DNA of 64,000 nucleotides from positions 192,001-256,000 of the forward strand of contig CBDCVK010000002.1 in NCBI GenBank assembly GCA_965223005.1, written 5' to 3'. Positions 8,250 through 63,375 of the stretch are shown here, in pieces; position 1 is the stretch's first letter; each line of letters begins with the position of its first letter. The notes under the pieces were generated by a model. The model saw nothing but the letters and a program-made list of their open reading frames with translations, did no database searches and was not told where the DNA came from. This DNA comes from Terriglobia bacterium. Its GTDB lineage: Bacteria; Acidobacteriota; Terriglobia; JAJPHL01; JAPKYU01. Made by a program: the position numbers and the translations under genes.

Positions 8250-11200
8250 ATGCCTACGTCCTTGATTCGTAGCGTGGGACCGGGAATGGCGCTGCTAGCG
8301 CTTGGGCTGCTAGCCAGCGGCTTGATGAAGCTGGATTCGGGCCCACTCCTTGCTAATAAGCCATCCTCCGCAGCGAAAACTCCGACGGTCAACAAGCCGC
8401 AGGTGGTGGAGAACTACGGCAAGCTACCCCTGAGCTTTGAAGCCAATCAGGGGCAGAGCGACAGCCAGGTGGACTTCCTGTCGCGGGGCAGCGGCTACAC
8501 GCTGTTCTTGACCCCAACTGAGGCCGTGTTGGCCTTGCGCAAGCCCGTCGCGTCCAACAAACCGCGCGGAGACAATGCGTTGCCACCCAATGCAGAAGCA
8601 GAGCAGGCTCCTGCTATCCCGCCCGCAGTGGTGCGCATGAAGTTGGTCGGCGCCAACCCGTCGCCGCGGGTGTCGGGACTGGACGAGCTGCCTGGCAAGA
8701 GCAACTACTTCCTCGGCAACGATCCCGACAAATGGCGCACCGATGTGCCTCACTACGCCAAGGTGTCCTACAAGGATGTTTATCCCGGCGTGGACTTGGT
8801 TTACTACGGCAATCAGCGCCAACTGGAGTATGACCTGGTGGTCGGGCCGGGGGCCGATCCGGCCGCCATCGCGCTCAGCTTTGACGGTGTCGAGAGGCTC
8901 CGGATTGATGCCCAGGGCGACCTTGTGCTAGACACCGCTGACGGAGAGATCCGCCAGCACAAGCCTCTGGTGTATCAGGAGGTGGACGACGTCCGGCGGG
9001 AAATCCCTGGGGCCTACGTGCTCAGCGGCGAGCGGCAGGTGGGCTTCGAGGTGGCCGCCTATGATTCCAGCCAGCCTCTGATCATTGATCCGGTGCTGGC
9101 ATATTCCACCTACCTCGGGGGCAGCGACGGCGACCGGGGCGAAGACATTGCCGTAGATTCCTCCGGCAACGCCTACGTCACGGGCAGGACGTTTTCGACC
9201 GACTTCCCTACTGTGAATCCCTTCCAGGCCGCCCTCGGGGGCACTAGTGGTGATGTTGACGTATTTGTGACGAAACTGAATGCCGCCGGCAACACTGTGG
9301 TTTACTCCACCTACCTCGGGGGTAGTGACGAAGATTTCGGCCCCGACATCGCCGTCGACAGCTCGGGCAATGCCTACGTGACAAGCAGAACGAAGTCGAC
9401 CGACTTCCCCACGGCCAATCCATTCCAGGCTACCCACGGCGGCGGTGGCCTCGACGGCTTTGTGGCAAAATTGAATCCCTCCGGCAGCGCTTGGGTTTAT
9501 GCCACCTACCTGGGCGGCATTAGCAGCGATGAACCCACAGACATTGCGGCAGATGCGTCAGGTAACGCCTACGTGACAGGGGAGACCGCGTCGACGAACT
9601 TCCCCACGGCTAATCCAATACAGGGCACTAAGGCCCTCGGTGACGACGTCTTTGTGACCAAGTTTAATCCCGCCGGTAGTGCCCTGGTGTACTCCACCTA
9701 CCTGGGCGGTAATGGCACCCCCGACACTGGCTTTGCCATTGCCGTAGACGCCTCGGGCAACGCCTACGTGACCGGGGAGACGAATTCGACCGACTTCCCT
9801 ACTGTGAATCCCTTTCAGTCAACTCTCCTTGGAGGCCGCGACGCTTTCATTGCTAAAATCCGTCCAGATATATCGGTCCCGACTTGCACCTACTCGATTT
9901 CCCCGACCAGTGAATCGTTCCCAGCGAGTGGGGGAACCGGCAGCGTGCTGGTGTCAACGCGCTGTGGCTGGAACGCCAAGAGCGACGTGAGCTGGATCAC
10001 CATCACCTCGGCCGCTAGCGGCGGCGGCACTGGCCGGGTGGAGTACTCGGTGGAGGCCAATCCCGACACCGGTTCGCGCATGGGGACGCTGACCATCACC
10101 GGCGGGCAGATCCTCACGGTGACCCAGGCAGGAATGGTCGAGGTTCCTCCGGCCTTGATCGTGACTCCGACCCTGGGCTTTTTCGGAACTGTGGGAGACT
10201 CGCCTGCGCGCCAGGGCTTTCAAATCGGCAGCGACGGCGAGCCGGTGAACTGGACCGCCACGGTCAGGCTGCTGAACGGAAGCGGCTGGCTAACTGTTTC
10301 TCCCAGCTCGGGCGCGGCCAGCCTGGCGCAGCCAGCGGTTGTGATTGCAACGGTCAACTACGGCGCGCTGGGCGGCGCCGGAGTGTTCCAGGCGGTGATT
10401 ACGGTGACCGATACGGCGACCGGCTCTTCGGTCACAGTTCAGGTGACGGCGGTCTTGAGCGCTCCCGTAGCCCGACTGTCGTTGAGCCAGACGTCATTCA
10501 CGTTCCAGGGGATATCCGGCTGGCCGCCTCCTCCGCAGAGCCTTACGGTGTTCAACCAAGGAGCGGGAACGTTGAACTGGTCGCTTTCGGGACTCCCTTC
10601 GTGGCTCACAGCTTCCCCGCCGTCGGGAACGGCAGGGGCGGGCTCGTCCTCCCTGGTCACGCTGACAGCGAATCTGACGGGTCAGGCTACCGGTGTTTTC
10701 CAGGCGCTGGTGACCGCATCCGCTCCGGGAGCAAGCGGTGATCCGCAACTGGTCTCGGTGACGTTGAACGTCGTATCAACGAGCACGGCTCCTTTGGCAG
10801 ACCTAAGTCCGAATGGGATGCTATTCGTCGCCGAGGACGGCGTCACCATACAGCAGGCCGGCACTGTGCCGGGGGCGCAGGAGTTGACGGTGAACAACAC
10901 GGGGGGAGGAACCCTCACGGCAGATTTTGTGGCTGCGACCAGTTCCGGCGGGGAGTGGCTGATGGTGAGCCCGCCGAGCGGGACCGCGTCGGGGGGGGCC
11001 GTTCCCGACGCAGGTTTCGGTAAATCCTGTGGGGCTGGCGCCGGGCGTTTACCGGGGCACTGTTGACGGCAGCTTCTCCTCCAGCGGGCCACAGGAGGTG
11101 GAAGTGTTGCTAATTGTGACGCCGCCGGGCACGTCGCTGCAGACGCAGTCGGGTCTGCCGGGTGCGACCCAGTGCGCTCCATCGGGGCTGCAGTTGCTGT

Positions 11201-18610: not shown

Positions 18611-18687
18611 GCGCCCGTAGCTCAGCTGGATAGAGCGTTGGTCTCCGGAACCAAAGGCCGCAGGTTCGAATCCTGCCGGGCGTACCA
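18611..18687 (+). tRNA. tRNA-Arg(CCG)
   Basis: GCGCCCG/CGGGCGT acceptor stem, D arm TAGCTCAGCTGGATAGAGC, anticodon arm TTGGT-CTCCGGA-ACCAA, T arm GCAGG-TTCGAAT-CCTGC, encoded CCA. Confidence 0.97.
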
Positions 18688-18692
18688 GCTTT

Positions 18693-19865
18693 TCAACGAC
18701 TTAGGGGGGGGCATTCTCCCTGAGGCCCTATTTGTGACGTGGTTTGTGACGTAACCGCCCCCTGCACCCCACCCACACTGGCCTCCACGACGCTGCTGGG
18801 AAGACCCGGTTCGGGTAAGGCGGGAGACTCCCGGACCGCCGATAACGCTTCCACCGCAGCCCTCTTGGCAGCCAGCCGAGGATGGGAGTACCAGCGCGTC
18901 ATGGCGGGGTCCAAGTGCCCGACGATCTCTCGGATTACGCCCTCCGGGACACCGGCCTCCAGCATTTCAGTAACACATTGGTGGCGGAGGTCGTAGTAGC
19001 GGAATCCCGGTAGTCCGGCGGCTTTGCGAAGAGAGCGCCATGCCGACCTCCAGCTACTCATCGGCCTGGTGCCGTCAACCTTTGGCCAGAGGCGGTGGAA
19101 TACGAAGTTGTCAGGCTGATTTGTGCCGAGAATCTCGGCCCGCTTTCGAAGGGCACATATGGCGACCCAAGCTTCGTCGTTCAGGGGCACCACCCGAAGA
19201 CCTGCGTCGGTCTTACTGCGGTGAACCAGAACCGTCCGTTCGTTTGCATCAACGTCTCGCCAACGCGAGGACCGTAGTTCCGAGGGCCGCAGAGAGGCGT
19301 TCGCGGTGAGAAGCGCTGCGCAGTACGCAACAAACCAGTCGGGGTTGCTTGCGGCTGTCTGGTAAAGACGCAACTTCTCTTCTTCACTCAGCAGCCGGAC
19401 GCGCGGACGCGGCACAGGTAGCATCTGGACGTCCGGCACACGGACTTTTGCCAGCCTGAGAAGGCGGAGAAGCAGCTTCAGTTCGTGGTTGATGGTGCGC
19501 GGATGTCGTCCGGCAGCGCAACGATGGCGCTGGTAGTTGCGGACGTGATCCTCTGTGATTTGATTGATCCGCAAACCAATGAACAAAGCCCCGAGCGGCT
19601 TGAGCCTTGCTGCTTCCGGTTTCCATGTGGGTTCCGGGGTGAGAAGCTTCCGGTGTTCAAGGTAACGGTTGGCAGCTTCCGCGAAAGGTACTCGTGACAA
19701 CTGTCGGCTTGAGGCGGCAAGCTTGCCTTCACTCGCCTGCGAGATCAGCTGCTTATCGCGAGCTTGGGCCTCGCGCCAGTCCTTAGTGTGGAGGGACTGC
19801 CGGTACCGCTGGCCGTTGACCGAAAAGTCCGTCCACCAGGTCTTGCGTCGTTTGTAGGGTGCCAA
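18693..19865 (-). CDS. Tyrosine integrase
   Basis: LRPSEL (R), SKT (K), YDLRH (HxxR variant), VGH and RWY catalytic motifs; N-terminal arm-binding-like [21 protein letters not shown]. Confidence 0.95.
18732..18755 (+). other. Putative integrase arm-type sites (TTGTGAC x2), left end
   Basis: TTGTGACGTGGTTTGTGACGTAAC; near-identical TTGTGACGTACTTTGTGACATAAC at 45645-45668. Confidence 0.7.
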
Positions 19866-20984: not shown

Positions 20985-21263
20985 ATGAGATTTCAGACCG
21001 AAGACCTGCCCTTCGCCAGCTACCTGCACTCCACTCGCAGGCTCCGTTTCGTTGGCTGCGAGCCTGTCAACGGTGCTGGGCGCGTAGCCTTCGTGTTCGA
21101 CGACCCGCATGGCGAAGGCGAGCAACTCAGTGTGGACTTCGAGGGCGGTGCGGAGTGCCCGGCGGCGGCCTTCTACGACGCTGTGCGCCACCTGCGGCGC
21201 GTGATGGACGGAGCAAGGAACAACCGGAACAAAGGAGCACGAGAGCATGAGCACCGCGACTAA
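20985..21263 (+). CDS. Small element protein, DUF5659-like
   Basis: FQTEDLPFASYL...GRVAFVFDD...FYDAVRHLR; RBS GGGGAG. Confidence 0.55.
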   Translation: MRFQTEDLPFASYLHSTRRLRFVGCEPVNGAGRVAFVFDDPHGEGEQLSVDFEGGAECPAAAFYDAVRHLRRVMDGARNNRNKGAREHEHRD

Positions 21264-23114
21264 CCCAAACACACCTCCCCGCGACAGCCTGGTCAGTACG
21301 ACAACCAATGGCCAAGCGCCCGTCAAGAAAAATGATGACGGGCAGGCCGTGTCGCCTGGGGCCACTTCGCTCAGCGCCGCACGTGTCTACCTGGACAGAG
21401 GCTGGGCACCTATCCCCATTCCGCATGGGGCAAAGGCACCGTGCCTACGCGAGTGGACCAGCCTCCGCGTGAGCGCAGACGACCTGCCCCACTTCTTTGC
21501 GAACGACTGTAATGTTGGGCTGCTGCTGGGCGCCGCATCAGGTGGGCTGGTGGACGTGGACTTGGATGTCCCAGAGGCGGTTGCTGCTGCTGAGTTGCTT
21601 CTCCCGAAGACGGGCATGGTTCACGGTCGTGCCGACAAACCACGCTCGCACCATTGGTACATCACCGCTTCCCCACCGGAGACGGCGAGGTGGCAGGACA
21701 TGAACGGTGATGTGCTATGCGAGCTACGCTCCACGGGCAGCCAGACCCTGGTGCCTCCCAGCCGCCATCCCGGTGGACAGGACTACAAGTGGCACGCCTT
21801 CGACGAACCCGCCCGCGTGGATGGCCCCACTCTGCGCCTTCATTGCGCGCTCATTGCCTCCTGTGCCTTTCTGGCTCGCCGCTGGCCTGCGCAGCCCAGC
21901 AATCGCCACCAACTCGCGCTGCCGCTTGCCGGGTTTCTGCTACAGGGTGGCCTGGATGAACAGCGCGCCTCGTTGATCGTACAGACCGTGGCCCGCATAG
22001 CGAGAGATGAAGAGGTCAAGGACCGCGTGGGAGCAGTCCGCGACACGGCTCGGAGGCTAGCAAGAGGTGAGCATGTAACGGGCGAGCTAGCCCTTGCCGG
22101 CTTGCTCGGCCAACCTGCAGTCCAACGACCGCGTGAAATGCTCCAGCTCCGCGACAACCGCAGCGTCTTGGACGCTCCCAGGGTCCAGTGGGAACTTCGC
22201 AGCTTTCAGGATGCGATGCAGGGCGCCAGTGACCGCCCCCCCTGGGTGATCGAGGACTTGGTGCTGGAGCAGAGCGGCACGTTGGTGTCGGCCCACCCGC
22301 ACAGCATGAAGTCCCTCGCGTGGCTCGCCGGCTGCCTTGAGGGCGTGGCGAAGAGGAAGGTGTGGGGGCACTTCGCAGCGCCGGACCTCGATAGCGCCCT
22401 TTTCGTCGAGACCGAGGACCCGCCCTGGCTAGTGGAGGGCCGAATCCGTGGCCTTGCCAAGGGCCTGGGACTGGACGAGAAGGAACCCCTGCCTGGCTTC
22501 CACTACACCTGCGTCGGGCCGTTTGACCTACTCCAGGAGGAGTCGAACATCAGGGGGTTGATTGACGATCACGGGCTGAAGCTGATCGTCGTCTCAACGT
22601 TGCAGAACCTGCTCAGCGGACGTAGTTGGAAGCAGCAGGACGACATGCAGCCCATCCTGGCCATGCTGGTGGGAATCTCGCGCCACTGCCCAACTGTCGT
22701 TCTGACCCACTCGCCATGGGATCGGAAGCAGAAGCGGCCGGCTGGCAGTGTGACGATAGCGGCGAACTTCGTCACGTCACTGCATTTCGAGAAGGTGATA
22801 AAAAAGGACCCGAACTACGTCCATGTCAGCGTGGACTCCAAGGTGGGAGCGCAGGAGACCGACTTTACCCTCCGGCTGAGCACCGATGGGGACCCACGCG
22901 ACCCGAGCAGCGTGCGGGCCTGGACTACATCGGCCCCGGATGGCCAAAAGGTGTCAAGAAGGACGCGGTGTTGGCTGCGCTGGAGGACGATCCCGACGCC
23001 CCGGCCGCGGAGATCGCGGAGCGCACTGGCGTGTCCCGCCGCTATGTGGAGAAGCTCATGAAGGAGGCGGGCAAGGGTGACAGGGGCAAGGGACGGAGGG
23101 AGGAGGAGTCGTAG
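21247..23114 (+). CDS. Bifunctional primase/polymerase fused to AAA_25-like helicase with C-terminal HTH (frameshift near 22916)
   Basis: GWAPIPIPHGAKAP, NVGLLLG..GLVDVDLD, PPSRHPGG; Walker A-like HSMKS. One added G joins the frame GLDYIGPGWPKG...AAEIAERTGVSRRYV. Confidence 0.85.
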
Positions 23115-29298: not shown

Positions 29299-30081
29299 AT
29301 GATGAAACTGCTCGCGGTTGTCTCGGCAACGGTCATAGCAGCGCTGGGGGCCATTGCGCTTCCACCCTCCGAGGTTCCCACGGCCAAAGTGAACTCGGAA
29401 GACGGGCTCAAATACGTCTGGATTCCGCCCGGCAAATTCATGATGGGGTGCTCGGAGGGAGATAGGGGGTGCCTTCCTGATGAAAATCCAGCTCATGAAG
29501 TAACAATCAGCAAGGGCTTCTGGATGGGACAGACCGAAGTCACTGTGGGCGCGTACAAGCGATTTGCGAATGCCACGGAAAGAACGATGCCCAACGCCAC
29601 GGGTTGGAATCCCGATTGGCGCAACGAGCAAATGCCGATGACCAAGGCCACGTGGGGGGACGCGGACGCTTACTGCCGCTGGGCCGGCGGGCGATTGCCG
29701 ACCGAAGCAGAATGGGAATACGCGGCGCGCGCCGGGAGCACCGTAGCCGTCTACGGTCCCCTGGACGAGATCGCCTGGACCTGGGCCAAAGGCCGCCGTG
29801 GTCCAAGCGAAGTAGCAATGAAGCGACCGAACGATTTTGGGTTGTTCGACACGCTGGGAAACGAGTATGAGTGGGTGAATGACTGGTATGAGGAGGATTA
29901 CTTCTCCGATAGCCCCGCAACGGACCCGAGGGGCCCGCCGAGCGGAGTAACGCGAGTCGTGCGAGGTGGGGAGTGGGCCGGCATCGGGAAGTTCGCGCGA
30001 GTTTCTGCCCGCCGCAGCTGGTTTCCAGACAGCTCCGAATTCGGCGGCGGCTTTCGGTGTGCGCTCCAACCAGGTCCCTAG
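29299..30081 (+). CDS. Formylglycine-generating enzyme (SUMF1/FGE-sulfatase) domain protein
   Basis: IPPGKFMMG, DENPAHEV, RLPTEAEWEYAARAG, PNDFGLFDTLGN, VVRGG, GFRC. Confidence 0.93.
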   Translation: MMKLLAVVSATVIAALGAIALPPSEVPTAKVNSEDGLKYVWIPPGKFMMGCSEGDRGCLPDENPAHEVTISKGFWMGQTEVTVGAYKRFANATERTMPNATGWNPDWRNEQMPMTKATWGDADAYCRWAGGRLPTEAEWEYAARAGSTVAVYGPLDEIAWTWAKGRRGPSEVAMKRPNDFGLFDTLGNEYEWVNDWYEEDYFSDSPATDPRGPPSGVTRVVRGGEWAGIGKFARVSARRSWFPDSSEFGGGFRCALQPGP

Positions 30082-30299
30082 GGCCTTAAAGTTGACTGTC
30101 GATGATCTCATTCCGGTCCGGATCGACGACGAAGATCCCATCATTGGATTTCCCAAAGATCTTGTGAAATGGCTCTTGGCTTCTGCCCGGAGCCTCTCCA
30201 GTCCGTTCGCGCTGTTTCTTTAACGATTCGAGCGCGGATACTCTCTCGCGACGCCGGATAGGTCCCCACTAACGGGCTAGCGCTTATCAATCCCGGTTT

Positions 30300-30403
30300 C
30301 ACATGGCCGTATAGTCGGCTTACCGGACAAGTGCCTACCTTGAGGCAGCGTCACTGCGCGGTACGAGGGCACTTGTCCGGTTAGCGCGTTATACGTCCAA
30401 GTG
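30300..30403 (+). repeat. Paired dyad site S2 (104-bp imperfect palindrome)
   Basis: CACATGGCCGTATAGTCGGCTTACCGGACAAGTG-36 bp-CACTTGTCCGGTTAGCGCGTTATACGTCCAAGTG. Confidence 0.9.
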
Positions 30404-30698
30404 GCGCACCGCTGAGCGGGTGGGGGTATGAGCATTTCCGAGTACGCCGGAGACGACGGGATTTCAGGACCTGGCGAGGACCGCTCGGAGCCCCCAGAGA
30501 GAAGAACTGTGCTGGAAGGACTCAGTTGGAGGCCGATGGTTGTATATTTACGAGTGCCGGAGGGCCAAAAAACTAATTCCGGTTAAAATAACCCATTGGC
30601 GAGGAGACCTCCCGAGTGGGTGATCGCACGGGACGTCACACGAGCTATCCATCCGGGGCAACCGTTGACCGTACGCTCCCCCTTAAAGACATAACTTT

Positions 30699-31907
30699 AT
30701 GATTTCAAAGGCTGAATTCAGATTATCCAAGCTCCTCCTGCTTACGGTTGGCCATTTTACGGTGGACTTCTATGGCGGGTTTATTCCCGTGCTGGTGCCG
30801 GTGTTGCAGCGGGCCTTGGGTTTTACGCTTACCGAGGCGGCCATCCTGGTTTCGGCCTTTTCGCTTTCGGTCACATTCTCCCAGGCACTTTTTGGGGTGT
30901 TGTTCGACCGCTGGCGCAGTGTGCGCCTGGTGGCCTTCGCTCCCATGCTCGCCGCAGTCACACTGAGTTGTATCGGGATCATGCCTTCCTACATCAGTCT
31001 GATTTTCCTGGTCATCGCCGGCGGTCTGAGCATTGCCGCATTTCATCCCTACGGCGCATCCCTGGCGGCGATCGAAAGCGGGCCCCGGCACAGTGTCGGA
31101 ATGTCCATCTTCGTCACCGGCGGGGTGATGGGCGTGGCCGTGGGAGCCCTGGTGGCCGCGGCGCTGGTCGACTGGGGAGGATTGTCCGCGACGGTTTATG
31201 CCGTCGTTTTCGGATGTCTGGTTGCCTTCCTGATTCGCCGCAACATCAACGGAAGGCCCGTGCCTCAGGAGGGAAAATCTCAGGGGGCGGGAACCCTGCC
31301 AACGGGCTACGGATTACTGTTTGGCCTGGGAATTCTCTCCATGCTTCGCGCATTTGTAATCCTGGGCTTTCAGACCTTTGTGCCGCTCTACTTGACCGAA
31401 CTCGGCACCCCGCTCCCTACCGTGGGCCTGACCTTCTTTGTGTTCGGGATTGCGGGAGGAATCGGCGGCTTGACGGGCGGTACCTGGGCCGAGCGCATCG
31501 GCGAAAAGGGAGTCCTGTTTGCATCCTTCCTGATTCCCATCCCGCTCTTGCTCGGATATCTCCTTTTGGGGACTTCCGTTGCGGGCATCGCGTGCTTCGG
31601 ACTGGCGGGGTATTCCCTCTTCACCGGAGTGCCCATTCTGATCGCCATCAGCCAGCGCAGCTTTCCCCGGCGAGTGGGGACGATTTCGAGCTTCGTGATG
31701 GGCGTGAGCTGGGGGATGGCGGCAATCGGCATTACCCCGGCGGGAATGTTCGCCGAAAGATTCGGGCTTTACTCGACCCTTTGGGTTCTGGGGCTGACCG
31801 GTTTCGTGGGATTCCCGGTGGCGGTCTTGCTGTTTCGCAGGCAACCCGTGCCGGCGATTCCCCCCGCCCAGAACGAGGTCAAGGAAATCGACTGGGAAGC
31901 GACCTGA
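30699..31907 (+). CDS. MFS transporter (Fsr-like)
   Basis: About 12 TM helices; HFTVDFY, AAFHP, MSIFVTGG. Confidence 0.9.
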   Translation: MISKAEFRLSKLLLLTVGHFTVDFYGGFIPVLVPVLQRALGFTLTEAAILVSAFSLSVTFSQALFGVLFDRWRSVRLVAFAPMLAAVTLSCIGIMPSYISLIFLVIAGGLSIAAFHPYGASLAAIESGPRHSVGMSIFVTGGVMGVAVGALVAAALVDWGGLSATVYAVVFGCLVAFLIRRNINGRPVPQEGKSQGAGTLPTGYGLLFGLGILSMLRAFVILGFQTFVPLYLTELGTPLPTVGLTFFVFGIAGGIGGLTGGTWAERIGEKGVLFASFLIPIPLLLGYLLLGTSVAGIACFGLAGYSLFTGVPILIAISQRSFPRRVGTISSFVMGVSWGMAAIGITPAGMFAERFGLYSTLWVLGLTGFVGFPVAVLLFRRQPVPAIPPAQNEVKEIDWEAT

Positions 31908-32214
31908 TCTTTTCCCTTATTCCGCCAGGTAAATTCTTCTTGAAAGAAAAACCCAGGGCTGCGGATTTCCGATGGAAATCCAACCTTGCCTGGGATTCCC
32001 CATTGAGGTCGACACGAGCACGGGCTGTATCGGTAACCGCGTCTACACAGACCTCGGGGAAGACGAGCTTTACGTAGCGGATCCTGGGAATGACTTGGCC
32101 AGGGTTGCCGATGAGGTCAAAAACGATCGCGGCGGCTAACGCCAAGTTGTCGGAATACCACCGCGAACGGCGGAAGGCGCAGCGCCCTGAGGCTCCTTCT
32201 CTGACGTCGGCGGT

Positions 32215-32309
32215 CACTTGGACGTATAGTCGGCTATCCGGACAAGTGACCCTCTACGCCCGCCAGGGTAGTAAGTCAGTTTCCGATAAACGCGTTATAC
32301 GTCCAAGTG
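32215..32309 (+). repeat. Paired dyad site S3
   Basis: CACTTGGACGTATAGTCGGCTATCCGGACAAGTG...CAGTTTCCGATAAACGCGTTATACGTCCAAGTG. Confidence 0.9.
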
Positions 32310-32440
32310 GGCGGCGTGGCAGCATAGGCAAACAATAACCGACCACTTGACGCTGCTACGGAGCCTGACAGATTGACGAATCAATTCGTTGCCAGGTGCG
32401 GTATCATGGTCCCCATGCAGCCATGTTCACGAGAGGATTC

Positions 32441-33406
32441 ATGAATCGCAGAACTTTTGTGGGTAGCGCGCTGGCGAGCGTCGCCGCCCTCGGGACTTCC
32501 GCTCGGGCGAGCAAGCTCAAAGCGGGCGACATTCCGACCAGGGTCTTCGGCAAAACCGGCGAAAAGCTCACCATCGTCGGCCAGGCCGGCTCCCGTTTCC
32601 CCCTGATCTCGTTCGAGGAGGCCAAGCAAGTTACTCTGCGCGCCTACGAGTTGGGCATCAACTACTTCGATACCGCGCACGGCTATTGGGACGGCCGCTC
32701 GGAAGAAGTTTATGGGGCGGTCATGCCGCCGTTCCGCAAAGAAATCTTCATCACCACGAAGTCAAAAAAGCGCACGCGCAAAGAAGCCGAGGAAGAGCTG
32801 CACCTCTCGCTCAAGCGTCTCAAGACCGACTACGTGGATCTCTGGCAGATTCACTCGGTCAATAGCGACGAAGACTTGCAGAAGATCTTCGCTCCGGGCG
32901 GCGCCATCGAGGCGTTCGAGGAGGCGAAGAAGGCCGGCAAGTGCCGCTTTATCGGATTCACCGGCCACCACGATCCCGATGCGCACCTGGAGATGCTGCG
33001 GAGTTACAAGAACTTCGACACGATCTTGATGCCGCTCCACCCGGCCGACCCCTCGTACCTCAGCTTCGAGACCAAAGTCCTGCCCGAGTCGATCAAGCAG
33101 GGTCTGGGCATCCAGGCAATGAAGTGCACGGCGAATGCCAAGCTGTTGCAGACTATGAGCCTGAACGATTGTCTGGCCTACGTGCTGAGCCTGCCGATCC
33201 ACTGTGCGACTTTGGGCGCGACAACCGTTGGTCAGATCGAAGACGACGTGCGCTTTGCTCAGCGGTTCAAGCCCATCGGCGATACCCAGATGAGCGCGCT
33301 GCGCAAGCGCGCCGAGCCGATCGCCGGCCCGCATCTGGAAACCTGGAAGCGTAATATCAAGACTGCGGACTACCGGCCGCCGCGCCCCGTCTATCAGGGC
33401 GACTAG
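32441..33406 (+). CDS. Aldo/keto reductase with Tat signal peptide
   Basis: MNRRTF twin-arginine leader; GINYFDTAHGY, SLKRLKTDYVDLWQIH, GKCRFIGFTGH. Confidence 0.92.
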   Translation: MNRRTFVGSALASVAALGTSARASKLKAGDIPTRVFGKTGEKLTIVGQAGSRFPLISFEEAKQVTLRAYELGINYFDTAHGYWDGRSEEVYGAVMPPFRKEIFITTKSKKRTRKEAEEELHLSLKRLKTDYVDLWQIHSVNSDEDLQKIFAPGGAIEAFEEAKKAGKCRFIGFTGHHDPDAHLEMLRSYKNFDTILMPLHPADPSYLSFETKVLPESIKQGLGIQAMKCTANAKLLQTMSLNDCLAYVLSLPIHCATLGATTVGQIEDDVRFAQRFKPIGDTQMSALRKRAEPIAGPHLETWKRNIKTADYRPPRPVYQGD

Positions 33407-33677
33407 CGGCAGCTGCGGACCTGCGCGGGCTTGTTTGCGTGGATCGCTTTCGAATTGAGTCAGATCATGAAGCCGCATCCCAAAAGGGTGCGGCTTTTCG
33501 CTTCTGAGGATGAACAGAGAGCAGAAAGATCCGACCAGCAGGAATCAGCCCAGCTAGACAACCTGTTTGATCAGTTGGCTGTGCACCTGAGCCACAGTCG
33601 CGGCCGCCTGGGCGGGCAATTCTGGGAAATGCCGGATAGGTCGCCACTAGCGGGCTAGCGTTTATCAATCCCGGTTT

Positions 33678-33781
33678 CACTTGGACGTATAGTCGGCAAA
33701 TCGGACAAGTGCCTACCTTGGGGCAGCGTCACTGCGTGATACGAGGGCACTTGTCCGGTTAGCGCGTTATACGTCCAAGTG
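33678..33781 (+). repeat. Paired dyad site S4; flanks 33632-33836 nearly duplicate 30254-30458
   Basis: Same architecture and linker as S2. Confidence 0.9.
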
Positions 33782-33841
33782 GCGCACCGCTGAGCGGGTG
33801 GGGGTATGATCATTTCCGAGTGCGCCGTGACACGACCGGAA

Positions 33842-34033
33842 TCATCGAAACTGGCGATGCGGCTGGTTCACCCTGCGTGCCACCCACCGGCTGATCGCTC
33901 CGCATGCGGAGAAACTTGGCTTCCGGGTGCTCTGCCAGGGAGCTGATTCGGTTAATACTGCTGCCTTCGCGTGATCGAGATCTGGGAGCCGAAGGACTTT
34001 GGTGTTTTTCCAAGAATCGTTTAGAATCGGCAC
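33842..34033 (-). pseudogene. Remnant of tyrosine recombinase N-terminus (KVLRLPDLDHAKAAVL)
   Basis: Matches KLGLPDLDQAKAAVL in the ORF at 58934; similarity is lost after about 16 aa. Confidence 0.6.
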
Positions 34034-34062
34034 AGCAAGCTAGCATTCGGGGTAGGTATGCT

Positions 34063-37000
34063 ATGTTCATTCGTCCTTCGTGTCTTGTAATTCCGATTCT
34101 CTTTCTTGCGGCAACGGCTTCTTCGCCTGTGCCGGTTTCGGAATCGTCGCGTACCATTGATTTTCAGCGGGACGTTCGTCCCGTCCTCTCCGATAATTGT
34201 TTTCAGTGCCACGGCCCGGACAAGGGCACTCGCATGGCTGAGCTTCGGCTCGATACCCAGGATGGCGCCTTCGCCAAGCGGGCGAACGGAACAACGATCG
34301 TCCCAGGGGATCCGGAGGCAAGCCTGCTTTACAAGCGCATCACTCACGAGAACGAGAGGATGCGGATGCCGCCGGCTTATTCCAAGAAGGAACTGGCGAA
34401 AGAGCAGATTGGCGTACTACGGAGGTGGATCGAGGAGGGCGCTTCGTGGGACCAGCACTGGTCCTTCAAAGCGATCAAGCGGCCCAAACCTCCCGCAGTG
34501 AAGAACGAGGCCTGGGTCCGCAGCCCGCTCGACCGGTTTGTTCTCGCCCGGCTCCAGAAGGAAGGTCTTGCGCCTGCTCCCGAAGCCGACAAACGCACCC
34601 TAGCCCGCCGTGTGGCGCTGGATTTAACGGGATTGCCTCCCGACCACGGCACCCTCGAAAGCTTCTTGAGCGACACCTCGGAACAAGCTTATGAAAAACT
34701 GGTCGACCGGCTGCTAGACTCGAAGCACTGGGGCGAACACCGCGCCCGCTATTGGCTGGACGCAGCGCGTTACGGAGACACCCACGGTATTCACGTCGAC
34801 AACTATCGCGAGATGTGGCCCTACCGCGACTGGGTGATCCGGGCTTTCAACGACAACAAACCGTTCGACGAATTTACGGTCGAACAGATCGCCGGCGACT
34901 TGCTGCCCAACCCGACGCTCGATCAACTGGTTGCCACCGGTTTTCATCGCTGCAATATCACGACGAACGAAGGCGGTGTCATCCCTGAGGAATACGAAGC
35001 TGTCTACGCCAAGGACCGAGCCGATACTACGGGCACCGTCTTTCTCGGTCTTACGGTCGGGTGCGCCACTTGCCACGATCACAAGTTCGACCCGATTCGA
35101 CAGCGCGAGTTCTATTCCCTGACGGCGTTTTTTAGGAACACGACGCAGTATGTGATGGACGGCAATATATCGGATCCGCCGCCCATCCTGGTTGTCCCCA
35201 GCGACAAAGACCGCGGCCGCTGGCATGAGCTCCGCCGGGAAGCGGCGGAAACCGAAGCGAAGATCAAAAACCGCACCGCGTCGGTCGACGAAGCGTTCGC
35301 GGAATGGCTTGCGAGCAAGGAACATCGTTCCCTGCAGACCCCGCTCGAAGAGTCCGCGGAGCTGCTGACGCTGAACCTTGACGATGAACCCGCGATCGAC
35401 ATGGGCGGAAGGCGGAAGAAAATTGCACTTCATCAGGGAGCCGTGGTCGATGAAGGGCCGAACAAAAACCAGCCGGCGCTGCGGTTCGGGAAGGAATCGT
35501 GGGCGGAGCTTCCTCCCTTGAAGCTTGACAGTGACACACCCTTTTCTATTGCGATGTGGGTTTACCAACCCAAGGTCGTAGGGGCCTTCGTGGTTGCCGG
35601 TCAGTACGATCCCGACGACGATTCCCGCGGATGGTCGATTGGCGTCGACGCTCGGCAAGTCACCTTTAGAATGACCGGCGAAAGGCCGGCGGGGCAAGAA
35701 AATCCGTCCGAAGTCACCGTTGTGCCCATCATCACGAAGCGGATGCCCGCGGGTGTGTGGACCCACATTACGGTAACCCACGACGGCTCCGGCGAGCGGG
35801 CCGGCCTGCGTATCTACACGAACGGTGATGTCGTAGAGGAGCAGGGCAGCGAGTTTTTCACGAAGGTGGAGGGGAGTATCCAGACCAACCGGCCTCTCTA
35901 TTTGGGCAGAGGAGTCACGAAGGGCAGAGGCGACCGCGACGAGCCCGAAGTCCGCTACTTCTCGGGCGGGGGCATAGCGGATCTTCGAGTCTTTAGTCGC
36001 CCGATCACGGTCCAGGAGGCCAAGGTTGTTTCGTTGTGGTCCGTGCTCCAAAGCGCGCGGGATAAGGAACCTGAAGAACTAAGCTCCGACGAGCGGGAAG
36101 CGCTGCGTCTCTACTACCTCAGCGTCAAGGACCAAGATTACCGCGAGCTCGTGGCGCGCAAGCAAGAGATCGATCGGGAGTGGCGGGAGGTCCGGCGGCG
36201 CGGGGGTGTCACACACGTGATGCGGGAGATACCGGACAAGGAGCCCGAGGCTCACGTTCTCTACCGCGGCCTGTATGACCAACCTCGGGAGCGTGTTACG
36301 GCAAACACTCCCTCGGCGTTACATCCAATGCCTGCGTCGTGGCCGCGCAACCGCATGGGGCTGGCTAAGTGGTTGGTCGACGAGGCGAACCCGCTGACAA
36401 GCCGTGTGATCGTGAACCGTTACTGGCAGGAAGTCTTCGGTGCCGGCCTGGTAAAGACCAGCGACGATTTTGGCTCGCAAGGGGAGTCGCCGTCTCACCC
36501 TGAGTTGCTCGATTGGCTGGTAGTCGAGTTCCGCGAATCGGGCTGGGACATCAAGCAGTTCTTCCGCACGCTCGTGACGTCCTCCACGTACCGCCAGTCC
36601 GCCCAAACGACGGCGGAAAAGCTCGATAAGGACCCGGAGAATCGGCTGCTCTCGCGCGGGCTCAGCTTCCGCATGGACGCTGAAATGATCCGCGATTACG
36701 CCCTGGCGGCGAGCGGCCTGCTGGTCCGCAAGATCGGCGGCCCGAGTGTGAAGCCCTATCAACCGGAAGGAGTCTGGAAAAGGGTGGCAATCACCATGAG
36801 CAACACCAGCTCCTACAAACAAGACTCCGGCGCCAAACTCTATCGGCGCAGTCTTTATACCTTCTGGAAGCGCTCCGCGCCGCCAGCCTCCATGGAGGTT
36901 TTCAATGCGCCGACACGGGAGCACACCACGGTGCGCCGCGAGCGAACCAACACGCCGCTGCAAGCGCTCGTCACGATGAACGATACACAATTCGTCGAAG

Positions 37001-37296
37001 CGTCACGCTATCTCGCACAGAAAGCCATGCGCGAGGCCGGAGATGACTTCGACCGGCGGCTGGATTACGTGACGACCCGCCTTCTTGCACGTGACTTCAG
37101 TCAAAACGAACGCGCGGTTGCGAAGCGGTCCTACAACAAATTCATCGGTTTTTACGGTTCAAACGCCGCAGAGGCAAAGAAGCTTCTTGCTGCCGGCGAG
37201 TCACCGCCCGATGAGGCGCTGTCCGTGACGGAGTCTGCAGCGTGGACCTTTCTGGCGAGCCAGATAATGAATTTGGACGAGGTGTTAAACAAGTAG
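34063..37296 (+). CDS. DUF1549/DUF1553 (PSD1) protein with planctomycete cytochrome c and LamG-like domain
   Basis: DFQRDVRPVLSDNCFQCHG, WLDAARYGDT, CATCHDHKFDP, PSHPELLDWL, TNTPLQAL. Confidence 0.92.
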   Translation: MFIRPSCLVIPILFLAATASSPVPVSESSRTIDFQRDVRPVLSDNCFQCHGPDKGTRMAELRLDTQDGAFAKRANGTTIVPGDPEASLLYKRITHENERMRMPPAYSKKELAKEQIGVLRRWIEEGASWDQHWSFKAIKRPKPPAVKNEAWVRSPLDRFVLARLQKEGLAPAPEADKRTLARRVALDLTGLPPDHGTLESFLSDTSEQAYEKLVDRLLDSKHWGEHRARYWLDAARYGDTHGIHVDNYREMWPYRDWVIRAFNDNKPFDEFTVEQIAGDLLPNPTLDQLVATGFHRCNITTNEGGVIPEEYEAVYAKDRADTTGTVFLGLTVGCATCHDHKFDPIRQREFYSLTAFFRNTTQYVMDGNISDPPPILVVPSDKDRGRWHELRREAAETEAKIKNRTASVDEAFAEWLASKEHRSLQTPLEESAELLTLNLDDEPAIDMGGRRKKIALHQGAVVDEGPNKNQPALRFGKESWAELPPLKLDSDTPFSIAMWVYQPKVVGAFVVAGQYDPDDDSRGWSIGVDARQVTFRMTGERPAGQENPSEVTVVPIITKRMPAGVWTHITVTHDGSGERAGLRIYTNGDVVEEQGSEFFTKVEGSIQTNRPLYLGRGVTKGRGDRDEPEVRYFSGGGIADLRVFSRPITVQEAKVVSLWSVLQSARDKEPEELSSDEREALRLYYLSVKDQDYRELVARKQEIDREWREVRRRGGVTHVMREIPDKEPEAHVLYRGLYDQPRERVTANTPSALHPMPASWPRNRMGLAKWLVDEANPLTSRVIVNRYWQEVFGAGLVKTSDDFGSQGESPSHPELLDWLVVEFRESGWDIKQFFRTLVTSSTYRQSAQTTAEKLDKDPENRLLSRGLSFRMDAEMIRDYALAASGLLVRKIGGPSVKPYQPEGVWKRVAITMSNTSSYKQDSGAKLYRRSLYTFWKRSAPPASMEVFNAPTREHTTVRRERTNTPLQALVTMNDTQFVEASRYLAQKAMREAGDDFDRRLDYVTTRLLARDFSQNERAVAKRSYNKFIGFYGSNAAEAKKLLAAGESPPDEALSVTESAAWTFLASQIMNLDEVLNK

Positions 37297-37390
37297 AATC
37301 AGGGCGGCTGACCCGGCGCACGCCTGTCGTGTGCCCCATCCGGCTTCCGCGCCTGACGTTCGGCTTTACTCGCTCAGGGAGATTTTGAAA

Positions 37391-38857
37391 ATGCATCCAT
37401 ACAAAGAAGCAGTCCTGGCGGAAACCAGACGGCAGTTCTTCGCCCGAGGCGCCAAGGGTATCGGCGGAATCGCCTTGGCCAGCCTTCTGGCCGAGAACAG
37501 CTTCGGTGCACCCGGAAGTGACGAATCATTTGGCGGTTTGCCGCACTTGCCTCACTTCGCCCCGAGAGCGAAACGGTGTATCTACCTCCACATGATGGGT
37601 GCGCCGCCGCAGATGGATCTGCTCGACTACAAGCCCAAGATGAAGGACTGGTACGACAAGGATCTTCCGGAATCGGTGCGCCGGGGGCAGCGTCTGACGA
37701 CCATGACATCCGGACAGGCGCGCTTCCCGATCGCACCTTCTGTCTTTCAATTCAAGCAGCACGGCCAAAGCGGCACGTGGATTTCCGAGCTTTTGCCCCA
37801 CACCGCAAAGATGGTCGACGACATGGCCGTTATCCGCTCGATGCACACCGAAGCAATCAACCACGAACCTGCGATCACCTTCATCCAAACCGGTCGGCAG
37901 GTCGTTGGGCGGCCGTGCATCGGATCCTGGATTTCCTATGGGCTCGGTAGTATGAACCGCGACTTGCCCACGTTCGTCGTGATGAACGCCGAGAAGAGCC
38001 ACCCCAAGGCAGGTGTGCAAGCGATCTCGGCAAAAATGTGGAGCTCAGGGTTCCTTTCTCCGAAGTACGCCGGCGTAGGTCTCCGCGGAGGCGCAGAGCC
38101 GGTGCTGTACATCAAGGATCCGGATGGGGTTTCCAGGGATCTCCGGCGGCAGATGCTCGACGGCCTCAGCGAGCTGAATCAGCTCCGGCACCAGAAGATC
38201 GGCAACCCCGAAACACTGGCACGAATCGAGCAGTTCGAAATGGCCTTCCGGATGCAGTCGTCGGTGCCGGAGATGGGTGACCTCTCGAGTGAGCCGGAAA
38301 GCACCTTCAAACGCTGGGGCGAAGAAGCGAGGCAGCCCGGCAAGTTTCAAAACGCGGCGCTGATGGCGCGGCGGCTCGTCGAGCGCGGTGTGCGGTTTGT
38401 CCAGATCTATCACCGCGGCTGGGACGTACACTCCTTCGCGCCCGAAGTGCTCCCTGCGCAGGCCGCAGACGTCGACCGCGCTGCCTGGGCCCTAATCCAA
38501 GATCTGAAGGAGCGCGGCCTCTTCGAAGACACGCTCGTCATTTGGGGCGGCGAGTTCGGGCGGACAATCTACTCCCAGGGCAAACTGACGCCGACCGATT
38601 ACGGCCGCGACCACCATCCGCGCTGCTACAGCCTATGGATGGCCGGCGGCGGCATCAAAGGCGGCGTCGTTCACGGCGAAACGGACGACTTCTCCTACAA
38701 CATCGCCAAAGACCCGGTCCACATCCGGGATTTCCAAGCGACGATCCTGCACCTGTTTGGCATCGACCACGACCGCTTCACCCACAAGCACCAAGGACTG
38801 GACGCCAAGCTGACAGGTGTCGAACCAGCGCACGTGGTGAAAGAAGTCCTGGCGTAA
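37391..38857 (+). CDS. DUF1501 family protein
   Basis: TRRQFF, ARRLVERGVRFVQIYHRGWD, WGGEFGRT, GRDHHP. Confidence 0.92.
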   Translation: MHPYKEAVLAETRRQFFARGAKGIGGIALASLLAENSFGAPGSDESFGGLPHLPHFAPRAKRCIYLHMMGAPPQMDLLDYKPKMKDWYDKDLPESVRRGQRLTTMTSGQARFPIAPSVFQFKQHGQSGTWISELLPHTAKMVDDMAVIRSMHTEAINHEPAITFIQTGRQVVGRPCIGSWISYGLGSMNRDLPTFVVMNAEKSHPKAGVQAISAKMWSSGFLSPKYAGVGLRGGAEPVLYIKDPDGVSRDLRRQMLDGLSELNQLRHQKIGNPETLARIEQFEMAFRMQSSVPEMGDLSSEPESTFKRWGEEARQPGKFQNAALMARRLVERGVRFVQIYHRGWDVHSFAPEVLPAQAADVDRAAWALIQDLKERGLFEDTLVIWGGEFGRTIYSQGKLTPTDYGRDHHPRCYSLWMAGGGIKGGVVHGETDDFSYNIAKDPVHIRDFQATILHLFGIDHDRFTHKHQGLDAKLTGVEPAHVVKEVLA

Positions 38858-39513: not shown

Positions 39514-39569
39514 CACTTGGACGTATAGTCGGCTATCCGGACAAGTGCCAACCTGGAGGCAGCGTCACT
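39514..39569 (+). repeat. Dyad site S5 (left half plus partial linker)
   Basis: CACTTGGACGTATAGTCGGCTATCCGGACAAGTGCC...GCAGCGTCACT; a further half copy at 39242-39262. Confidence 0.85.
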
Positions 39570-49549: not shown

Positions 49550-49642
49550 GACTTGGCTGTATAGTCGGCTATCCGGACAAGTGATCCTCTATGCCCGCCA
49601 GGGTAGTGGTCAGTTTCCGATAAGGGCGTTATACTCGGAATT
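49550..49642 (+). repeat. Paired dyad site S6 (same linker as S3)
   Basis: GACTTGGCTGTATAGTCGGCTATCCGGACAAGTG...CAGTTTCCGATAAGGGCGTTATAC. Confidence 0.88.
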
Positions 49643-51195: not shown

Positions 51196-53463
<2,268 letters not shown>

Positions 53464-56665: not shown

Positions 56666-56716
56666 CACTTGGATGTATAACGCGCTTATCGGAAACTGAC
56701 CTACTACCCTGGCGGG
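56666..56716 (-). repeat. Dyad site S7 (inverted; S3-type right half plus linker)
   Basis: CACTTGGATGTATAACGCGCTTATCGGAAACTGAC...CCCTGGCGGG. Confidence 0.85.
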
Positions 56717-57676: not shown

Positions 57677-57715
57677 CACTTGGACGTATAACGCGCGGCT
57701 CTTCTGGAAATGACC
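57677..57715 (-). repeat. Dyad site S8 (inverted, degenerate second arm)
   Basis: CACTTGGACGTATAACGCGC; shares the GGCAGCAT.GGCAAAC flank with S1, S3 and S7. Confidence 0.8.
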
Positions 57716-58851: not shown

Positions 58852-58871
58852 CACTTGGCCATATAACGCCC
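58852..58871 (-). repeat. Half site S9, about 60 bp upstream of the recombinase start
   Basis: CACTTGGCCATATAACGCCC. Confidence 0.65.
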
Positions 58872-58933
58872 ATACCATCCTCGAACTCACCCGATTCCTA
58901 ATCTCAAGGCCAGCCGTCAGGAGGCGGCTGACC

Positions 58934-59881
58934 ATGAGAAGAAGATCACAAAGAGCTGGCAAGAAAGCAGCTCGACCGAAGGCGAAGCTTGGACTTCCGG
59001 ATCTGGATCAAGCCAAGGCAGCGGTGCTCTCTACACTACGCTCACCTGAGTCACAGCGCGGCTATCGGCACACCATCGACGAGTTCATTTGGTGGTACTG
59101 CTCGGAGCCCCGCCTGGTGCAGGCGCAAGGTACGGTGCAAGCCAACCCGACGGTGCCGGCCCTGTTTGCCGGCGGAGTAGTGAACGGGGCCAGCTTTGCT
59201 CCGGGCGAAGCGCTGGCGCCAGGCAGCATTGTGTCGGTGTTTGGGCTCAACTTGGCCAGCGGGTTGAATTTTGCTTCACAGGTGCCGCTAGAAACAACAC
59301 TGGGTGGTGCAACCATGAACATCGGAGGCGTGGAGGCACCCCTGTTCTTCACCAGCGACGGGCAGGTAAACGCGCAGATTCCGTTTGAGCTAGCCCCCAA
59401 CAGCCGGCCGCACGTGGTGGTACAGACGCGGCGCGATGGCAGCGGTCCGGAGGCAATCACGGTACCGGGGACCATCACGCTGGCCGGGGCGCGGCCAGGC
59501 ATCTTCACCACCAACCAGCAGGGGACCGGGCAGGGAGCAATCCTGGACGCGCAGGGGCAGCTGGTGGACGGCGCGGCGCCCGCTGCGGCGGGTGAAATTA
59601 TACAGGTGTTCTGCACCGGGCTGGGCGCCGTGAAGGAGCAGGTAGAGACGGGAGCCCCCGCGCCCTCGTTCAGCACCGTGCAACTGCCGGTGACGGTGAC
59701 CATCGGAGGGCTCGACGCCGCGATAGCCTACCAGGGGCTAGCGCCCGGCTTTGTGGGCCTCTACCAGGTGAACGCCGTCGTGCCCGCCGGCGTTGCGGCG
59801 GGCGGTGCGGTCCCGCTGGGCCTCACGCAGAACGGGATTGTGGCCAACCCGGGTCAGCCGGTCACCATCGCCGTCGAGTAG
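58934..59881 (+). CDS. Chimeric ORF: tyrosine recombinase N-terminus (about 60 aa) fused in frame to a TIGR03437-type domain
   Basis: KLGLPDLDQAKAAVLSTLRSPESQRGYRHTIDEFIWWYCSEPRL then VQAQGTV...VVNGASFA...GLAPGFVGLYQVN; RBS AGGAGG. Confidence 0.75.
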   Translation: MRRRSQRAGKKAARPKAKLGLPDLDQAKAAVLSTLRSPESQRGYRHTIDEFIWWYCSEPRLVQAQGTVQANPTVPALFAGGVVNGASFAPGEALAPGSIVSVFGLNLASGLNFASQVPLETTLGGATMNIGGVEAPLFFTSDGQVNAQIPFELAPNSRPHVVVQTRRDGSGPEAITVPGTITLAGARPGIFTTNQQGTGQGAILDAQGQLVDGAAPAAAGEIIQVFCTGLGAVKEQVETGAPAPSFSTVQLPVTVTIGGLDAAIAYQGLAPGFVGLYQVNAVVPAGVAAGGAVPLGLTQNGIVANPGQPVTIAVE

Positions 59882-63341: not shown

Positions 63342-63375
63342 CACTTGTCCGGTATGCGCGTTATATGTCCAAGTG
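63342..63375 (+). repeat. Dyad site S10 (right half)
   Basis: CACTTGTCCGGTATGCGCGTTATATGTCCAAGTG; upstream GCTTCCCCGAAGG shared with S1. Confidence 0.85.

Follow-up and report, generated by a model that had tools for sequence, protein, structure and literature searches.

In the Cre/loxP and Flp/FRT systems a single tyrosine recombinase acts on a 34-bp site in which inverted arms enclose an asymmetric centre, and in the yeast 2-micron plasmid the recombinase gene itself lies between inverted sites. Sites of the pdif type occur on Acinetobacter plasmids (Blackwell & Hall 2017, as cited in PMC9771954). The attP(+) site of the CTX phage is a hairpin, in which a pair of inverted Xer sites anneals to give a single duplex site whose centre is unpaired. 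The attC sites of integrons, which IntI recombines as folded bottom strands, are built as R''-5-L'' (8 nt, with an extrahelical fourth base)...L' (7 nt)-6-R' (GTTRRRY). Here, we analyze a 95-nt paired unit at 32215-32309 of a 64,000-nt stretch of DNA from a Terriglobia bacterium of the Acidobacteriota (contig CBDCVK010000002.1, positions 192,001 to 256,000; this whole stretch is hereafter called the window). An earlier reading of the letters alone (the sequence-only reading) had seen an attC geometry in this unit and had left two options: a divergent hairpin site that acts as a single strand, or a pair of double-strand sites in opposed orientation. Of the arrangements described so far, pdif modules, flanked by XerC-XerD sites of inverse orientation, come nearest (PMC9771954); an attC model specific to Acidobacteria also exists (PMC8352920).

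On a slight balance of probability, the 95-nt unit consists of two double-strand sites which are the ends of a miniature derivative of a tyrosine-recombinase unit. The genome that holds the window (G000; 3.24 Mb in 10 contigs, 96% complete) belongs to a genus of four genomes, G000-G003, and from comparison of its sequences the paired site is probably a recombinase-less miniature that has been orphaned there. The parts of the unit and its immediate flanks are as follows.

32180-32214, + strand: repeated flank upstream of the left site; the same flank type precedes other L-type sites of the genome.
32215-32248, + strand: left 34-nt site (L-type), with outer arm 32215-32228 (CACTTGGACGTATA), centre 32229-32234 (GTCGGC) and inner arm 32235-32248.
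32249-32275, + strand: B-type interior of 27 nt, which contains a small local hairpin and varies among lineages (26 paired copies compared).
32276-32309, + strand: right 34-nt site (R-type), inverted, with inner arm 32276-32289, centre 32290-32295 (ACGCGT) and outer arm 32296-32309.
32310-32343, + strand: repeated flank downstream of the right site, a rough mirror of the flank that precedes other left sites.

Each half is an imperfect palindrome of 34 nt, composed of a 14-nt outer arm, a 6-nt centre and an inverted inner arm that is a weaker copy of the outer one. This 14 + 6 + 14 layout has the proportions expected of a tyrosine-recombinase core site, namely inverted arms of 11-14 bp around a centre of 6-8 bp. 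The right centre, when read from its outer arm, is ACGCGT in this unit, ACGCGC in the units with the other, A-type interior and ACGCCC in most other lineages. The limits of the site are sharp. In a profile of 91 distinct L-type copies from other genomes, nt 1-20 were preset by the search pattern, so that only the limits and nt 21-34 are informative; conservation is 0.04-0.22 bits at positions -11 to -1, 0.58 bits at position 0, 0.17-1.5 bits at nt 21-34 and no more than 0.27 bits past nt 34. Within these copies the inner arm is complementary to the outer arm in 76% (positions 1/34), 73% (5/30), 81% (9/26) and 92% (10/25) of cases, and at most outer positions the complementarity is 53-92%. The interiors of the paired copies vary in both sequence and length, whole elements measuring 68-104 nt.

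Most halves, moreover, stand without a nearby partner. A partner was sought, inside the locus or within 3 kb, for the 93 L-type sites in the genome loci that were fetched: 18 have one no more than 140 nt away, another 4 have one at a distance of 141-3000 nt, for 63 there is none and the remaining 8 had no room for one.

The same two ends bracket a recombinase gene elsewhere. At locus L052 a 316-aa Xer-like tyrosine recombinase gene lies between them, the whole measuring ~1.1 kb; on the strand of the gene the order is outer arm and ACGCCC, an 85-nt leader, the 316-aa gene, ~50 nt, and then GCCGAC with the inverted outer arm. The same compact layout occurs at L163, L182 and L183, and a looser one at L137 and L157-159. 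The encoded protein scores nearest to XerC (112 bits) and XerD (105 bits) on NCBIfam, both below the cut-off, and reaches 42 bits against an IntI cut-off of 265; its best solved relative is the XerC-like 4a8e. The linkage is also visible from the side of the sites: of 90 loci fetched solely for the L-type 20-mer, 6 encode a member of the family, and in G148, which has the closest recombinase (93% identical) of an evenly drawn sample of 401 genomes of the phylum, one of six 20-mer copies directly follows the gene. In those 401 whole genomes, by comparison, the family is found in 11 (E 1e-40). It is very common in metagenomes, where every one of the 8000 candidates scored passes E 1e-20 and the top 120 have identities of 78% or more. 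Many of the metagenomic members lie on contigs of 1.1-1.7 kb, to which we give no weight because such short contigs are normal in that collection. A homologue at L139, 62% identical, stands between a 20-bp inverted repeat of its own (1454-1473 and 2503-2522; 90% complementary). The architecture accordingly recurs with other arms, which suggests, on the sequences compared, sister families with other sites.

In the window itself the recombinase-bearing unit has left the following remnant.

58852-59116, + strand: relic of a recombinase-bearing unit, with outer arm and centre at 58852-58871, the conserved leader at 58872-58933 and the first 61 codons of the Xer-like recombinase at 58934-59116.

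In these codons 45 of 61 residues are identical to the L052 recombinase, and the same end and leader precede the L052 gene. The open frame 58934-59881 is chimeric, since the 61 recombinase codons are followed by an unrelated C-terminal domain, one that a dozen large secreted G000 proteins have in common. The relic fragment is the sole representative of the family in G000, and nothing closer than 29% identity was found in G001-G003. A cognate recombinase gene lies beside such sites elsewhere, and within the genus there is only its relic. Three tyrosine recombinases adjoin sites on contig C10 of G000, of 596 aa, of 334 aa and as a C-terminal fragment; beyond the family fold they are unrelated to one another, and they were not used. 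G000 also has a host Xer-like protein, encoded at 110.7-111.7 kb of contig C6.

The mechanism that we envisage is the following. The 95-nt unit would be two inverted 34-bp core sites of the lox/dif type for a tyrosine recombinase, and the parent unit of ~1.1 kb, in which the same ends bracket the 316-aa Xer-like gene, would have given rise to it by loss of its middle. The recombinase would bind each 34-bp site as double-stranded DNA and swap strands in the 6-bp centre, and the unlike centres would keep the two ends from recombining together. The roughly 40 sites per genome in this genus would be orphan copies that were spread earlier in trans. Two versions of the moving DNA can be considered. 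It may be transposon-like and include the outer arms, which is favoured by the sharp outer limit of conservation and by the lack of empty arm-centre-arm sites; or it may be an integrating circle, comprising only the part between the centres, which is favoured by the variation of the outer arms beside the gene.

The attC reading can be compared with these results directly. The left part of the unit reads CACTTGGAC (32215-32223), GTATAGT (32224-32230), CGGCT (32231-32235) and ATCCGGAC (32236-32243), and the right part TTCCGAT (32281-32287), AAACGC (32288-32293), GTTATAC (32294-32300) and GTCCAAGTG (32301-32309). A direct reading of the letters confirms the sequence-only reading to the base, and the attC-like spacing that it described is real. 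It was also correct that the left halves have AGT in place of AAC, all five of them (30300, 32215, 33678, 39514 and 49550) having GTATAGT, and that the outer arm is common to the units, for every unit in the window carries it. Membership of the attC class, however, fails. None of 26 distinct paired units (12 from this genus and 14 from elsewhere) has R' as GTTRRRY: most often the core is GTTATAC, whose fifth letter is T, and the variants seen are GTTTTTC, GTTAACC, GTTATCC, GTTACAC, GTGATAC and ATTATAC. The R'' consensus RYYYAAC is likewise absent, the left core being GTATAGT and ending in AGT in 26/26, and in 24-25 of the 26 copies its last two bases form wobble pairs with the T and G opposite them, or mismatch. 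The extrahelical fourth base of ATC[C]GGAC exists in this unit but is lacking in both A-type copies of the window, and it is lacking too in the sister B-type copies L024:2200-2293 and L025:1977-2070, whose left inner arms pair without an indel; there are no conserved extrahelical bases, since bulges differ by type and some B-type copies have none. The integrase is missing as well. In G000 nothing scores higher than 86.8 bits on IntI (TIGR02249), for which the cut-off is 265; within the genus 0 of 4 genomes have a match, and 6 of 61 relatives exceed the cut-off; in the IntI-bearing G019, G027 and G035 there is no match to the right core, and in G036 a single one, at control level. Together with outer arms that do not covary, the absent IntI, the deviating R' and R'' and the lack of a conserved bulge lead us to reject a true attC or integron. 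As to the two options left by the sequence-only reading, a pair of double-strand sites fits better, because the halves are self-contained 34-nt palindromes with sharp limits, are mostly partnerless and also flank a recombinase gene; the divergent single-strand hairpin fits less well.

The unit is one of many. Three intact paired units stand in a row in the window (30300-30403, 32215-32309 and 33678-33781), one decayed pair lies at 49550-49625 and there are five further single halves, at 39514 (+), 56666 (-), 57677 (-), 58852 (-) and 63342 (+). Besides the unit and the relic already described, these are:

30300-30403, + strand: paired site with A-type interior, 104 nt (fold z -5.77 and -7.71).
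33678-33781, + strand: paired site with A-type interior, 104 nt (fold z -8.79 and -7.86).
39514-39547, + strand: solitary L-type site, followed by a conserved extension common to other solitary copies.
49550-49625, + strand: decayed paired B-type copy whose right half has lost its outer arm (fold z -1.53 and 0.10, no better than shuffles).
56666-56699, - strand: solitary R-type site with a remnant of a B-type interior.
57677-57710, - strand: solitary R-type site with a degenerate inner arm.
63342-63375, + strand: solitary R-type site after a conserved extension of ~110 nt.

The A-type interior is the start of the long left-end extension of solitary sites fused to the end of their long right-end extension, as expected for an internal deletion. 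A direct repeat of 197 nt, 93% identical (30253-30449 and 33631-33827), reaches ~45 nt past the A-type unit on each side. When 3 mismatches are tolerated, the window has 7 matches to the 18-nt right core, compared with 0 in 100 shuffles, and 5 to the 20-nt left core, again with 0 in shuffles; chance recurrence of the two cores is excluded. The whole G000 genome has 22 left-type and 21 right-type sites at the same tolerance, and 1 match to the right core read backwards, which served as a control. These sites cluster on contigs C2 and C9, 0.85-24 kb apart and with constant polarity. At the upstream flank 32180-32214, BLAST coverage climbs from 1 to 4-20 copies. The flanks that precede left sites roughly mirror those that follow right sites, and at two loci in G001 and G003 (L019 and L020) both flank types abut with no 34-nt site between them.

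Outside G000 the distribution is uneven. Among 41 relatives that were sampled, the right core (at most 2 mismatches) is abundant only in this genus: it occurs 18 times in G000, 18 in G001, 5 in G002 and 22 in G003, and no more than 3 times in any other genome; the left core is present 26, 6 and 32 times in G001, G002 and G003. Among the 401 genomes of the phylum the 20-mer (up to 1 mismatch) was found in 4: G000 (17 copies), G148 (6), G360 (2) and G111 (1). A scan of the species-level genome collection for the exact left 20-mer, with one two-way position, gave at least 90 stretches, and nearly all their record titles name lineages of Acidobacteriota. Such a patchy, highly conserved and locally amplified distribution suggests, as far as sequence comparison goes, that the site family has spread horizontally. 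There were 0 matches to the sites on 2.9 million viral contigs. A few exact matches to the left core (L058, L065, L067, L078 and L098) are on genomes labelled Gemmatimonadales, Bacteroidota, Solirubrobacteraceae, Acidimicrobiia and Deltaproteobacteria, and could be due either to cross-phylum transfer or to binning errors. In public sequencing runs, six of which hold 73-84% of the sampled words (runs with a small word share were not interpreted), the contigs of four, mapped on 30000-34200, have a summed depth over the repeats 10-50 times that over the genes, and contigs end at left sites; parts of the stretch without cover are evidence of nothing. Depth spikes and contig ends agree with a multi-copy element and prove no recombination.

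The genes that stand between the sites of the window belong to modules that recur at other places.

30699-31907, + strand: MFS transporter gene between paired sites 1 and 2 (Pfam MFS_1, 8.1e-30).
32396-33406, + strand: aldo/keto reductase gene between paired sites 2 and 3 (Pfam Aldo_ket_red, 1.5e-25).
33904-38857, + strand: PSCyt1/PSCyt2/PSD1 gene (33904-37296) and DUF1501 gene (37331-38857) between paired site 3 and the solitary L-type site.

The MFS gene has counterparts elsewhere in the genomes of G001 and G002, with an identity of 98-99%, and the aldo/keto reductase gene has them at different loci of G001 and G003, with 94-95%. Taken together, the MFS, aldo/keto reductase and PSCyt/DUF1501 genes recur at unrelated loci of the sister genomes with 94-99% identity, compared with 85-97% for the syntenic core. 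A module of 2.3 kb on contig C5 is 97% identical to one in G003, where there are no sites. At position 389.5k of contig C2, G003 lacks ~1.3 kb, and G000 and G001 have different cargo between inverted L-type sites; one breakpoint falls at the border of centre and inner arm, and there is no target duplication. G003 has a weak site-like remnant at this locus, and its empty state may therefore be a deletion. The sites mark a mosaic, variable part of these genomes, which in the window extends from ~18.6 kb to at least 64 kb. At L017 (G001, contig C4), ~10190-10700, a 99%-identical MFS gene is joined upstream to an apparent fragment of what we take to be a phage terminase large subunit.

Several proteins recur beside the sites of G000: large secreted proteins with a shared C-terminal domain, PSCyt/DUF1501 pairs, and IS256- and IS5-like transposases. 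Kinases, TPR regulators and MacB/FtsX permeases do so in other genomes. We took none of these as partners because they belong to abundant paralogue families. Three identical copies, one of them truncated (G000 C9:82668-84026, C8:237583-238941 and C10:1102810-1103475), presumably encode an IS256-like transposase, and genes that look IS5/IS1182-like lie near all three.

A number of observations weigh against the view of the unit as a miniature with two double-strand ends. No empty target (outer arm-centre-outer arm) was seen in G000 or at any fetched locus, and no orthologous filled and empty pair for a paired site was found when G001 and G003 were compared with G000. No circle junction was found with a loose pattern, all 60 matches being noise or ordinary sites. 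The joints in the public-run contigs, with sides of 20-38 letters, match other copies of the family and show no recombination. Among 80 metagenome loci that encode the recombinase family, with 65-96% identity, both outer arms are present at 6 (compact at L163, L182 and L183; with the upstream arm 724-799 nt off at L157-159) and one is recognisable at ~8, and at 66 there is no outer arm (up to 3 mismatches, 900 nt) or no room for one. A de novo search for flanking inverted repeats at the same 80 loci gave mostly weak results at noise level. At many loci of at least 75% identity the upstream centre and inner arm are kept and the outer arm differs, for which an integrating circle is a better fit than a fixed-end transposon; strict motifs of centre and inner arm matched 9 of 75 flanks upstream and 13 of 76 downstream, and we rely here on the flank sequences themselves rather than on these counts. 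For three of the four modules examined (MFS, aldo/keto reductase and C5), homology with the sister genomes stops ~35-285 nt from the sites and not in the centres, so that there is no direct proof that the sites moved those genes, and the copies of the modules in G001 and G003 mostly have no sites at their borders. Finally, the inner helix of the paired units has two-sided changes in 8 of 12 pairs, as a hairpin would also predict, and a weak covariation signal (score 0.113, compared with 0.085 in shuffles, 2/500, and 0.093 when slid by +1).

This last point leads to the view that the paired unit folds and acts as single-stranded DNA, in the manner of attC or, more closely, of the attP(+) of the CTX phage, and exchanges one strand with a partner site. 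We regard this as unlikely. In its favour, apart from the inner helix, are an associated enzyme that is Xer-like, three co-oriented gene-plus-site units in a row that recall a cassette array, and the folding of the intact copies, which is far better than that of shuffles on both strands (z -4.1 to -8.8); for 32215-32309 the values are -4.96 and -4.09, as would be the case for any inverted repeat. The opposed centres, furthermore, are non-complementary in essentially all 26 copies (C.C in 26/26, G.G in 23/26, wobble G.T/T.G in 24-25/26), and these fixed mismatches would make a constant bubble between two stems, which accords with a folded form of the CTX-phage kind. Yet most L-type sites (63 of 93) have no partner inside the locus or within 3 kb, and partners can be 1-24 kb off; each half also has its own inverted inner arm and its own 34-nt limits, which a hairpin would not need. 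The sequence-only reading had looked to conserved bulges and covariation as the mark of such a site; no bulge is common to A-type, B-type and other-lineage copies, and in the outer 14-bp helix of the 26 paired units position 8 is unpaired in 13/26 and position 9 in 8/26, compensatory cells number 3 in all, and the two arms vary independently without covariation. The absence of IntI from the genus and of the sites from viral contigs speaks against it as well.

Two other explanations can be considered. The sites may be inverse module borders of the pdif kind, between whose like centres the host Xer or a dedicated one swaps modules, the paired unit then being the junction of two adjacent modules; this would extend the double-strand reading, and we think it doubtful. 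The orientation of the sites alternates along C2 and C9 with genes in between, the modules are found at unrelated sister loci with more identity than the syntenic core, and at the 389.5k locus G000 and G001 have different cargo where G003 has none. Against this stand the borders of homology outside the sites, the same modules in G001 and G003 without flanking sites, and the chance that the empty G003 locus is a deletion. Still less probable, in our estimation, are ordinary dispersed palindromes (REP/BIME, REPIN, a DDE-type MITE or an RNA hairpin) beside which the recombinase is a coincidental neighbour. The elements are indeed intergenic, multi-copy and mosaic, with several kinds of flank module, the depth of the public-run contigs spikes over them, and many copies are just past the 3' ends of genes. 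The linkage to the recombinase, however, is far above chance and positionally fixed. A REP/RAYT system would require the Y1 transposase, and PF01797 has 0 matches in G000 at its completeness of 96%; a MITE of a DDE transposon would have the inverted ends, but no target duplication accompanies the copies inspected and the enzyme of the parent is a tyrosine recombinase. The IS256- and IS5-like transposases, which lie near some copies, are unrelated insertions. No intrinsic terminator was found at the paired units. A search of the whole window against Rfam at the gathering threshold gave tRNA only, and one of 30150-33900 at E up to 10 gave no match at the sites and two weak matches, both inside the MFS gene. 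A promoter-like CTGACG-18-TATAGT at 32201-32230 agrees at 9/12 positions, but such matches number 2 where 1.2 are expected, which is not significant.

Other features of the window touch the sites less closely. A tRNA (18611-18684, +) adjoins a phage-type integrase gene (18693-19865, -), beyond which is a PrimPol/AAA_25 gene (21247-23061, +); the segment 18611-23061 looks like an island integrated at the tRNA, and synteny with G001 ends near 13.4 kb, ahead of it. A catalase-peroxidase-like gene at 51196-53379 (Pfam peroxidase, in two stretches) has a third-position G+C of 0.90, compared with 0.6-0.8 for its neighbours, and is possibly a recent import.

A search of the full-text literature turned up no account of such sites in print, nor of a lone Xer-like gene that inverted sites enclose in Acidobacteriota, the attC set of PMC8352920 not having been compared. 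We tentatively raise the possibility, which we think has the odds against it, of an undescribed minimal mobile unit of soil Acidobacteriota: an Xer-like gene between inverted 34-bp sites with unlike centres, the miniatures of which seed exchangeable modules. Acidobacteriota are among the commonest soil bacteria and their means of gene exchange are poorly known. If the proposal is true, dozens of chromosomal sites of alternating orientation put ordinary genes into exchangeable modules, and a small tyrosine-recombinase unit with its own miniatures would be a type of mobile element outside the usual lists of insertion sequences. The recombinase and its 34-bp site could also furnish a new orthogonal pair of the lox kind, if active. 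A practical consequence concerns annotation: the attC-like geometry may lead attC finders to call cassette arrays that have no integrase, which knowledge of a separate family would prevent.

The known systems each share part of this plan. Like an integron attC, the unit is an imperfect palindrome whose length is in the 60-140 nt range and whose ends are conserved around a middle that varies; it sits after co-oriented genes in a row, and its right core opens with GTT; unlike it, the unit belongs to a genus without IntI, its conserved arms are 14 bp long and most halves have no nearby partner. The CTX-phage attP(+) resembles it in its inverted Xer-type sites and their short spacing, and the two halves here could anneal similarly; here, though, there are no phage genes nearby and no matches on viral contigs, and there are lone halves and non-covarying arms. 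MITEs and REPINs are likewise hairpin units of ~70-100 nt that have only their ends in common with a longer, gene-bearing parent, outnumber it and persist in genomes without it; in the present case the parent encodes a tyrosine recombinase and not a DDE or Y1 enzyme, there is no target duplication and the centres are unlike. With loxP and FRT the unit shares the two-arm plan of a 34-bp site and a single tyrosine recombinase, but the flanking sites differ in their centres, so that a simple inversion between them is not expected, and the protein is Xer-like rather than Cre- or Flp-like. The dif and pdif sites of XerC/XerD also have two arms around a 6-bp centre, one much better conserved than the other. 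They differ in that the sites described here are 34 bp rather than 28 bp long and chromosomal, occur in Acidobacteriota, enclose one dedicated recombinase gene, are often arranged in head-to-head pairs 27-36 nt apart, and, for three of the four modules examined, lie outside the borders of homology. In pdif modules inversely oriented sites bracket modules of genes, and here too genes lie between such sites and the enzyme is nearest to XerC/XerD; should the possibility of an undescribed mobile unit hold, these sites would be the chromosomal equivalent of integron arrays and pdif modules, independent of IntI and perhaps dependent on an enzyme supplied in trans or on the host Xer.

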